A stretch of 44,395 nucleotides of DNA from positions 1-44,395 of IMG/VR virus record IMGVR_UViG_3300025038_000008, one strand, 5' to 3'. Each line of letters begins with the position of its first letter. Within the stretch, counting starts at the first letter, position 1. This document shows, one piece after another, positions 28,634 to 30,245 of this stretch. This DNA comes from a virus (lineage: Duplodnaviria; Caudoviricetes). A program made the translations under genes and the position numbers. The notes under the pieces are model-generated. The model was not told where the DNA came from. It did no database searches and saw only the letters and a list, made by a program, of their open reading frames with translations.

Positions 28634-29119
28634 TTATTTTAACCGCCAACCTTTCCACGCGCTCGATTTACCTTGCCTTACGTTAGACAATCCTGCTGTC
28701 GCATTGCAATACTCGCCACCTGTGCCGCGCTTGCCGCCTATGCGCCGCCACGTTGTATCAGCAGCGTCAAACAGATGCGCGTTATTGCGTACAAAGTGAT
28801 GCAGGTTTTTAACATGATAAATATCATCACTGGGTGACACTAACACCCAGCTTTTGGCATGTGTATTACTTACGCCGCGTCCGCCCAGCTCGCTTGCTTT
28901 GGCGGCGGCAGTAGCCTTGACTTGTTGCTCAGCGCTCGGCAAATACGTGGTCTTGCTTACGCCTTTGTCTTTACGTGTAGCACGCTGATTAGCCTTACCC
29001 GCTTTAAGCATCCATCGCTTTTTTGCTACCGTGTCGTAAGTCTTACCAAGCTCCTGCGCAAGCTGGCGGTTGTCCTTTGACCAGTCAACCGCCTGCCATT
29101 GCTCAATCGTCATGCGCAT
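28634..29119 (-). CDS. acrVA3: Anti-CRISPR protein AcrVA3 homolog
   Basis: End-to-end match to my recollection of Moraxella AcrVA3: WQxxDWxKxNxQxAQExGxxYxTVxKxR, RKDKGxS, ATAxAKAS, NTxAKxWxLxSP, NLxHFVRxNxHLFD, WKGWRL. Confidence 0.8.
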   Translation of the reverse strand: MRMTIEQWQAVDWSKDNRQLAQELGKTYDTVAKKRWMLKAGKANQRATRKDKGVSKTTYLPSAEQQVKATAAAKASELGGRGVSNTHAKSWVLVSPSDDIYHVKNLHHFVRNNAHLFDAADTTWRRIGGKRGTGGEYCNATAGLSNVRQGKSSAWKGWRLK

Positions 29120-29652
29120 TAAGCGACATCATCAATGCTTAGCAACTCGTCAGCATCGCCAATGCGCTCAATGCGTGTTACCTTGCTGCGCCAGTCATCA
29201 CCAAACCAAAACACCAGCCCCTCATCGCCTTTTACTGCGGTAAACTCAATGAGTTTTTTACCGTCTGCATCTATACCCGCTATCTTAAACAGATTGTTTT
29301 TATAAACAGCCATTACAATGCTTTTTAACTGCGCTTGCACCGCCTCAGCAACTTTGGCGCTGTTTGGGTTTTGAGCCACTTTGTTAATCATAGCTTTGTT
29401 TGGTTGCAATCTATTTATAAAGTTTGTCATGTCGTTATCCTTGTTGATCGTTTTTAAAAACTGGTTTATATTAAATTGCTTTTTATCTAGTAACGCACTG
29501 ACCTCTGTTGCAACCCAGCCGGATATTTGGCGATCACCGCTCATCCACTGCCTTACACGGCGGCTATCAATGTTTAAATCTCGTGCCATGTTTGATTGCC
29601 ATTGGTCGCCGTATAGCAAGCGACCTGCTTGCTCTAACTGTTTTATATCCAT
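29119..29652 (-). CDS. N-terminal HTH (Aca-like) fused to a ~100-aa domain of unknown function
   Basis: LYGDQWQSNMARDLNIDSRRVRQW helix-turn-helix; internal AAGGA RBS before Met75 (29430). Confidence 0.7.
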   Translation of the reverse strand: MDIKQLEQAGRLLYGDQWQSNMARDLNIDSRRVRQWMSGDRQISGWVATEVSALLDKKQFNINQFLKTINKDNDMTNFINRLQPNKAMINKVAQNPNSAKVAEAVQAQLKSIVMAVYKNNLFKIAGIDADGKKLIEFTAVKGDEGLVFWFGDDWRSKVTRIERIGDADELLSIDDVA

Positions 29653-29660
29653 TACTACCT

Positions 29661-30161
29661 CTATGCGTATTTGCGATATGGGTTTAAGTTACCTGCGTCG
29701 CTGTAACCCTCATTCATAATATTGTCATACATTTGAGCACGTGATACCTGACTGCGTTTAGCGGCTTGCTTGATGGCTGATGTCTTAATGCTTTTGGCAA
29801 TACTCATAACTAATTTTAAGCAGATTGCAAAAGTTGCTTGGTAACTATCGCCAGCCTTAACAGTCGCTTTAGTTAATTTGTGAGCTACTTTAAAGATGTT
29901 TGATTTGCTAGTAGACTTATTAAGAGCAACCTCAGCATCAACTACTGCAACTGGTGCTGCTTGCTCGATGTCCATAATGCGCACTACAGTGCCGCTAGCA
30001 TAAGTGGTTACGATAGAGTGGACAGCGTGATGGTTTTTAGTGCGATCACGGCGAGATACGCAAATCTCCTCACCAATTACAACATCGCCAAAATGCGCCG
30101 GAATCCAAGCACCCCAAGTGCCGTCAGATAGTTTTTTGTATGTGATTGATTGCTTAGCCAT
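29661..30161 (-). CDS. Hypothetical protein, first gene of the acr cassette
   Basis: AGGAG RBS before ATG at 30161 (MAKQSITY); 166 aa. Confidence 0.7.
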   Translation of the reverse strand: MAKQSITYKKLSDGTWGAWIPAHFGDVVIGEEICVSRRDRTKNHHAVHSIVTTYASGTVVRIMDIEQAAPVAVVDAEVALNKSTSKSNIFKVAHKLTKATVKAGDSYQATFAICLKLVMSIAKSIKTSAIKQAAKRSQVSRAQMYDNIMNEGYSDAGNLNPYRKYA

Positions 30162-30216
30162 GATGTATCTCCTAGATGATGACTGGCTCTGTAGCCTTGT
30201 CGTTGTTGATATGGTT

Positions 30217-30245
30217 ATAGTACCTAATTTTAGGCACACCGTCAA
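30217..30245 (-). promoter_or_regulatory. Strong sigma70 promoter of the acr cassette with a palindromic operator in the spacer
   Basis: TTGACG, GTGTGCCTAAAATTAGG (17 nt), TACTAT; CCTAA-AA-TTAGG inverted repeat. Confidence 0.8.

Follow-up and report, generated by a model that had tools for sequence, protein, structure and literature searches.

A 44,395-base virus contig, analysed here over its whole length (the window), carries a 1.66-kb swappable insert between the antiterminator gene Q and the late promoter of a temperate Psychrobacter phage. The insert holds three genes. Judged from its sequence and from a structural model, the last encodes a member of the AcrVA3 anti-CRISPR family, and the second encodes a helix–turn–helix (HTH) protein that is predicted to control the whole cassette. 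We favour, with moderate confidence, the account of a counter-defence cassette that limits its own expression and in which the AcrVA3 homologue operates at the DNA level.

The cassette and its slot

The window contains genes for an integrase, CI-like and CII-like regulators, replication proteins, Q, terminase, capsid and endolysin, and is therefore assigned to a lambdoid temperate phage. Among the named members of the 90% clusters that hold its Q, repressor and terminase, most come from Psychrobacter, and the public runs that hold the stretch are of marine origin. As the first-pass annotation had described, three co-oriented, tightly packed genes (30161–28634, minus strand) lie between Q and a pR′-like promoter. 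The start of gene 1 is preceded by an AGGAGA ribosome site, the start of gene 3 overlaps the stop of gene 2, and the GC content is 51.6% in gene 3 versus 43% in genes 1 and 2. The features are as follows (related loci that were compared bear L numbers).

30297–30713, minus strand: antiterminator Q, a conserved phage gene and the upstream flank of the cassette (PF06530, E = 2.9e-9; phrog_79; 90% cluster members are Psychrobacter Q)
30275–30291, minus strand: terminator-like hairpin 3′ of Q, the outer edge of the cassette (also in L027 and L030; empty-site joints at 30294/30298)
30217–30245, minus strand: predicted cassette promoter, TTGACG-17-TACTAT (9/12 consensus; same layout in loci of the HTH family)
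30220–30237, no strand assigned: operator palindrome with the core CCT-N6-AGG, filling the −35/−10 spacer; predicted site of the gene 2 HTH (11/20 HTH loci versus 0/24 controls)
30181–30201, minus strand: 5′-leader hairpin, predicted RNA site of the HTH (covariation; 12/14 operator loci)
29661–30161, minus strand: gene 1, 166 aa, a basic three-module orphan protein and candidate anti-defence gene (phrog_12732 on residues 85–133)
29119–29652, minus strand: gene 2, 177 aa, Xre-like HTH (1–72) plus orphan module (75–177) (phrog_12690, phrog_3626; PDB 8X24)
29428–29442, minus strand: possible internal ribosome site (AAGGA) and Met75 of gene 2 (4/4 distinct DNA loci; Met in 13/15 proteins)
28634–29119, minus strand: gene 3, 161 aa, AcrVA3 family by sequence and model, with an N-terminal HTH, a basic linker and an I-HmuI-like C-terminal domain (9KJA)
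28604–28632, minus strand: pR′-like late promoter, TTGACA-17-TATATT (11/12 consensus; near-identical in L027 and L030)
28537–28557, minus strand: tR′-like intrinsic terminator (8-bp stem with a T run)

An upstream start that would lengthen gene 1 to 207 aa was discounted on account of its overlap with the promoter and of the length of close homologues (164–169 aa). A terminator-like match inside gene 3 (28851–28829) has a poor T run and is ascribed to chance, and a single 156-nt contig over gene 1 in one RNA library was not accepted as evidence of transcription. Elsewhere in the window, four small orphan open reading frames lie between tR′ and the terminase region (27754–28500), in a stretch that joints show to vary between related phages. 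A dATP/dGTP diphosphohydrolase domain gene (PF18909) is found in the nin-like region (31441–31959), and a second pyrophosphohydrolase-like gene lies at 42468–43163.

The pR′-like promoter that was expected downstream is present at 11/12 consensus, with a −10-like hexamer following it (28598–28593) and then the terminator. It is conserved regardless of the cassette that precedes it, its leader is common to L073, in which the slot is empty, and it would be expected to depend on Q. No terminator of the cassette's own, as a moron might be expected to carry, was found between gene 3 and pR′; the next one is tR′ (28557–28537), which likely also ends the cassette transcript. The claim that the cassette is driven by its own near-consensus promoter fared unevenly. 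The predicted promoter matches the consensus at 9/12 positions only, which is the level of chance in the cassette region (9 such matches versus 8.0 expected from shuffles), so that the consensus score alone is insufficient. The promoter is credible because an operator palindrome occupies the same spacer position across related loci.

The gene content of the slot varies in relatives, as had been anticipated: the slot may be empty, hold genes 1 and 2 without acrVA3, or hold an acrIF11 homologue instead. In L030, whose Q is 91% identical, an AcrIF11 homologue (6KYF, E = 7.1e-11) occupies the same position between Q and pR′; this allele (L030:1651–2302) also contains a 71-aa gene, RHH-like by eye, and stands behind a different spacer palindrome. 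The L027 slot holds a gene 2 homologue with a different first gene and lacks acrVA3, and the L028 cassette likewise stops at gene 2. The sequences of the window, L027 and L030 converge again at the −35 box of a shared downstream promoter, and in L073 the pR′ leader follows directly after Q. The slot is without an insert in 8 of 16 Q-relative loci, as judged by eye. Contigs from three runs (three studies) join position 28637 to 30294/30298, with 14 other letters between the two sides in two of them; these joints, whose sides are short (25–30 letters, 85% alike), belong to related phages and need not represent the window phage itself. One further contig joins 28641 to 29191, an allele that skips gene 3, and 29146–30291 was found in a different context in two runs. 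An insert with its own predicted promoter in a conserved gene order, for which empty-site alleles exist, is the arrangement of a phage moron. Literature searches found no paper on an anti-CRISPR with antiterminator Q and the late promoter, and none on such a cassette in Psychrobacter.

The AcrVA3-family protein

The only PDB sequence match of gene 3 is chain A of 9KJA (residues 64–160; E = 4.8e-29, profile E = 2.4e-45), an entry titled 'Anti-CRISPR protein AcrVA3', and this chain served as the AcrVA3 reference for sequence and for fold. The gene 3 model (pLDDT 86.6) superimposes on it with a Z score of 11.4 and an rmsd of 1.4 over 67 aligned residues, and the C-terminal domains are 55% identical in the structural alignment. 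N44, L45, R50, L55, D60, N76, W92, K93 and W95 (9KJA numbering) are all kept. Among these, R50, D60, N76 and K93, which correspond to R111, D121, N139 and K156 of gene 3, are residues whose mutants lost activity (PMC13001698; its residue numbers agree with those of the 9KJA chain). Significant sequence similarity, the same fold and the retention of these four residues place gene 3, as far as sequence and modelling can, in the AcrVA3 family, in agreement with the first-pass annotation. Gene 3 differs from the 111-residue 9KJA chain in having an additional N-terminal HTH and linker (residues 1–63), of which residues 1–40 resemble small HTH domains (Z ≤ 4.6). It is 45% identical to OOR90252.1 of M. 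caviae, which we take to be AcrVA3.1; a literature search found no paper confirming that identity, and a search of the literature for a six-residue motif also returned nothing.

The structure of gene 3 points to an origin among homing endonucleases. Residues 66–161 align to I-HmuI residues 106–169 (1U3E; Z 5.5, rmsd 3.1, 64 aligned), and I-HmuI residues 1–105 have no aligned counterpart in gene 3. The catalytic core of I-HmuI lies within residues 1–105. Most of the named neighbours of gene 3 in BFVD are HNH or GIY-YIG homing endonucleases, with E below 0.001 for one match only. To our knowledge, HNH and GIY-YIG are unrelated nuclease families that share only accessory DNA-binding domains, and AcrVA3 would therefore be a DNA-binding arm with no recognised catalytic domain. 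Gene 3 had no nuclease (HNH) match in Pfam or PHROG. Because its fold resembles the DNA-binding arm of homing endonucleases, AcrVA3 likely acts on DNA. The 9KJA protein itself is described as cutting dsDNA non-specifically, with degradation above 2 uM, and as not binding Cas12 (PMC13001698); a metal test was not found in the short supplement of that paper. The accessible part of one review (PMC7556299) describes AcrVA3 as a weak and toxic inhibitor and AcrVA3.1 as partly active on type I-C. A comparable group, the CasPRs, comprises anti-CRISPRs derived from homing-endonuclease DNA-binding domains without the nuclease, as set out in the accessible text of a preprint (bioRxiv 10.64898/2026.02.23.707548); by the same text they differ from gene 3 in their CapR and AP2 domains and their Bacillota hosts, and a site in cas genes would be conjectural for gene 3.

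Among 204 candidates, 99 were full-length homologues of gene 3, with 10 invariant positions among 60 aligned. These homologues carry one to three N-terminal repeats, are kept in small operons across several bacterial families and stand at unrelated positions in either orientation. In L042, one lies near acrIF11 (8DWQ, E = 6.6e-46). A recurring cassette (L002, L003, L005, L011, L015, L017, L018 and L023) consists of a variable small gene, a conserved gene of 123–129 aa, acrVA3 and an RHH gene of 63–68 aa; the last gives an RHH_1 match and is possibly Aca14. This cassette adjoins Q, in the opposite orientation, in L002, L003, L017 and L023. An acidic orphan family of 113–129 aa, with no Pfam match, lies upstream of acrVA3 homologues in L005 (4079–4468), L011, L013, L025 and L041 (3519–3887), and is a candidate Acr.

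The CRISPR types of the probable host genus were surveyed in a sample of 121 genomes from the genus of G070, the Q protein of which is named as Psychrobacter. Cas12a was found in 0/121 genomes of this sample, which is a failure to find it and not proof of its absence, whereas the same search found it in 13/42 genomes of the Moraxella genus (the genus of G001), used as a control. This makes it unlikely that type V-A is the natural target here. Csy3 (type I-F) was present in 25 and Cas8c (type I-C) in 16 of the 121 genomes, and about two thirds or more carried neither. The suggestion made from the sequence alone that the target may be a type other than V-A is supported by these counts.

The regulator, its operator and the leader hairpin

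Residues 1–72 of gene 2 form an Xre-like HTH that resembles Aca10, Aca1, Aca7 and Aca2 in fold (Z 7.7 to 5.7). Its sequence gave no match at E up to 5 to the Aca chains in the PDB and scored 15.6 bits against Pfam Aca2_YdiL, for which the cut-off is 23.8. A candidate for the expected Aca-type regulator is present in this HTH with its co-occurring operator, unmatched to any named Aca among PDB chains. Motifs of this HTH family had 0 matches in the PMC9410906 supplement, in the part of that source available; published operator logos and preprint supplements may already cover it. The only PDB sequence match of gene 2 below E = 0.5 is 8X24 (E = 6.4e-4, residues 10–78), which the accessible portion of a preprint (bioRxiv 10.1101/2024.01.05.574328) describes as the dimeric HTH of an Acinetobacter type I-F Acr named AcrIF25. 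Both proteins have a related N-terminal HTH of equal length followed by a second domain; however, the match ends at residue 78, the C-terminal modules do not align, and a profile of the gene 2 C-module gave no match to 8X24 at E up to 1, so that the likeness is confined to the HTH. The name AcrIF25 has been given to two different proteins, 8X24 and the Cascade-disassembling 8JDI/8JDH, as far as the accessible parts of PMC13131331 and bioRxiv 10.1101/2024.01.05.574328 tell.

Some HTH proteins of this family stand alone, and others have further domains attached at one end or the other. The fusion to the C-module of gene 2 is constant in 15/15 near homologues, all of 177 aa, which led us to discard the view of gene 2 as a one-off read-through. 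Stand-alone relatives of the C-module, of 103 and 105 residues, begin at the Met75 position (3 strong among 9 matches, from 1.84 billion representatives). Because AAGGA precedes the Met75 ATG, by 7 nt, in all four distinct DNA loci, a second, shorter product of gene 2 is possible. The gene 2 model has a pLDDT below 50 over most of the C-module. None of the three genes matched a Pfam or NCBIfam family above the cut-off, genes 1 and 2 matched only PHROGs of unknown function, and ESM Atlas gave no feature match for gene 1 or the C-module; no known Acr domain was found in either.

Gene 1, for which there was no Pfam or PDB match, consists of three modules, which P0136 contains in permuted order. 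In seven independent loci (the window, L027, L028/L033, L035, L037/L044, L049 and L056), the gene immediately preceding the HTH gene contains the middle one of these modules. The same module is borne by the first gene of a Q-adjacent operon in the opposite orientation (L058:47–1400), a locus within which this HTH family is absent. Three candidate cargo proteins of related loci gave no PDB match. Among the HTH-family loci examined, a recognised acr lies beside the HTH gene only in the window phage and in L004.

The sequence CCTAA-AA-TTAGG has a single exact match in the window, in the spacer of the cassette promoter, where 0.03 would be expected. A relaxed operator test (CCT-N6-AGG with 3/5 flanking pairs, near the key gene) gave a match near the HTH gene in 12/20 loci, one of which is a terminator, leaving 11/20, and found none in the remaining 9/20. 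The 20 loci include near-duplicates and weak chromosomal homologues. Among control loci, from which duplicates were excluded, 0/24 had a match near the key gene, and one match occurred in 197,921 control bases. Both this pattern and that of the hairpin described below were defined after inspecting these same loci. The pR′ promoter was rejected as a second operator, as it contains a half-site only. In two loci (L045:1004–1125 and L056:1026–1147), a variant operator accompanies a leader hairpin in which a tandem repeat replaces the upper stem.

The leader hairpin comprises a 3-bp lower stem, a 2x1 internal loop, a 4-bp upper stem and a 4-nt loop. In an alignment of 10 leaders (9 distinct), 97.2% of cells were paired, a value reached in 0/500 shuffles, and two-sided changes were seen at 5/8 pairs; possession of the upper stem was the basis on which these leaders were selected, and the three covarying pairs of the lower stem are the only ones that this bias does not touch. 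With a structural descriptor, the hairpin was detected in 12/14 operator-bearing leaders and in 0/6 control leaders, with 0.0017 expected per leader. It is also found in the leaders of L048 and L050 despite their unrelated sequence. A search of IMG/VR with the exact pattern returned 40 matches, 7 of which have the HTH downstream and, in 7/7, the operator; 4 of these are among the loci already examined. The remaining 33/40 have no HTH nearby and are attributed to chance. The minimum-energy fold of the window leader is a different structure that pairs the start-codon region (z −1.17), and a search of Rfam gave sub-threshold matches only.

These elements recall the Aca1 and Aca2 acr–aca operons, in which an inverted repeat lies in the core promoter and the HTH is co-encoded, as described in the accessible part of PMC9410906. 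The cassette has the same layout, with a predicted promoter of its own, an inverted repeat in the promoter core and a co-encoded HTH, but its regulator is fused to cargo and stands mid-operon. The hairpin resembles the Aca1 leader motif, with its lower stem, small internal loop and covarying upper stem, as given in the accessible text of a preprint (bioRxiv 10.64898/2026.07.27.740549). It thus has the form of an Aca1/Aca2-type leader motif, and binding by the HTH is predicted. Taken together, the HTH, operator and hairpin are, by comparative analysis, an apparent case of the Aca1/Aca2 design in a family unmatched to any named Aca, in which the gene 2 HTH would repress the cassette promoter via the palindrome. 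In two Acinetobacter prophage-like loci (L048:1754–1875 and L050:1343–1464), the HTH family is encoded upstream of an antirepressor-like gene (labelled by eye), with the operator and an identically shaped hairpin at the promoter of that gene. The gene 2 HTH family may regulate more than anti-defence cargo. The first-pass annotation had noted neither the RNA hairpin nor the modular build of genes 1 and 2, nor the homing-endonuclease ancestry of gene 3.

Function of the cassette

The following sequence of events is proposed. When the phage enters, the host-type promoter would fire and all three proteins would be made. The gene 2 HTH would dimerise and bind the spacer palindrome, blocking transcription, and would bind the leader hairpin, damping translation, in the manner of Aca1 and Aca2. 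For the AcrVA3 homologue, the likely substrate is DNA (which it would bind and perhaps nick) and not a Cas protein; at that level its action would not depend on the type of CRISPR, and it would help against the I-F and I-C systems found in the genus. Gene 1 and the C-module of gene 2 would likely be further anti-defence cargo.

It might instead be argued that gene 3 is a non-specific dsDNA nuclease, that the cassette is a tightly repressed module for host damage or phage exclusion, and that CRISPR is inhibited only as a by-product of toxicity or of damage to DNA. The dsDNA degradation above 2 uM without Cas12 binding, the conservation of the residues of the four inactivating mutants (PMC13001698) and the toxicity of AcrVA3 noted in the accessible part of PMC7556299 all speak for this proposal, and two layers of repression would suit a toxic product. 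However, the fold match covers I-HmuI 106–169, a region that PMC13001698 itself calls DNA-binding, and the HNH and GIY-YIG neighbours together point to a shared accessory domain. Pfam and PHROG gave no nuclease match, the chain studied lacked the N-terminal HTH, no metal test was found in the supplement, and a non-specific nuclease would endanger the prophage's own DNA. We consider a nuclease role unlikely. That gene 3 is the decayed remnant of a homing endonuclease, passively carried so that only genes 1 and 2 matter, would fit its likeness to homing-endonuclease arms, its elevated GC content and its loss from several alleles, but appears highly improbable to us given the 99 full-length homologues with their invariant positions, the retention of the gene in small operons across several bacterial families and the coupling of its start codon to the gene 2 stop.

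A further possibility is that the cassette is a regulatory moron, in which gene 3 and the HTH regulate phage or host genes (for example, the timing of late genes, by a transcript running over pR′) and any inhibition of CRISPR is incidental. The two proteins both consist of DNA-binding folds, the N-terminal repeats of AcrVA3 homologues number one to three, antirepressor-like genes in L048 and L050 are accompanied by this same HTH, operator and hairpin, and no terminator separates the cassette from pR′. Nevertheless, AcrVA3 homologues are found at unrelated positions in either orientation, the slot is empty in many relatives or filled by acrIF11, and the full operator is absent at pR′; we regard a regulatory role as quite unlikely. 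The favoured account remains that of a self-limiting counter-defence cassette. We also put forward a more far-reaching version of it, tentatively and with considerable doubt: that AcrVA3 is misnamed, its members being DNA binders derived from homing endonucleases that silence or shield DNA, in the manner of CasPRs, against type I systems in hosts free of Cas12a. They would be controlled by an undescribed Aca family that reads the CCT-N6-AGG operator and the leader hairpin and is fused to interchangeable anti-defence modules, and an internal start would give a second product that lacks the HTH.

Of the type V anti-CRISPRs, AcrVA3 is the one least understood; the sole paper on its mechanism, which concerns a chain devoid of the N-terminal domain, proposes that it cuts DNA non-specifically. 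The retention of a full-length homologue in a genus without detected Cas12a makes the natural target directly testable, and the natural empty, partial and acrIF11 alleles of one slot are ready controls. The parts of the cassette are of known kinds; the question becomes testable through the as yet undescribed regulator, the series of natural alleles and the failure to find Cas12a. The trio of HTH, operator and hairpin would extend dual DNA and RNA autoregulation to a family without a match among the named Acas, and it singles out unstudied cargo genes as candidates. If AcrVA3 is indeed misnamed in the way suggested, the operator and hairpin would serve as a DNA-only hook for new anti-defence genes in the phages of Moraxellaceae and Pasteurellaceae.
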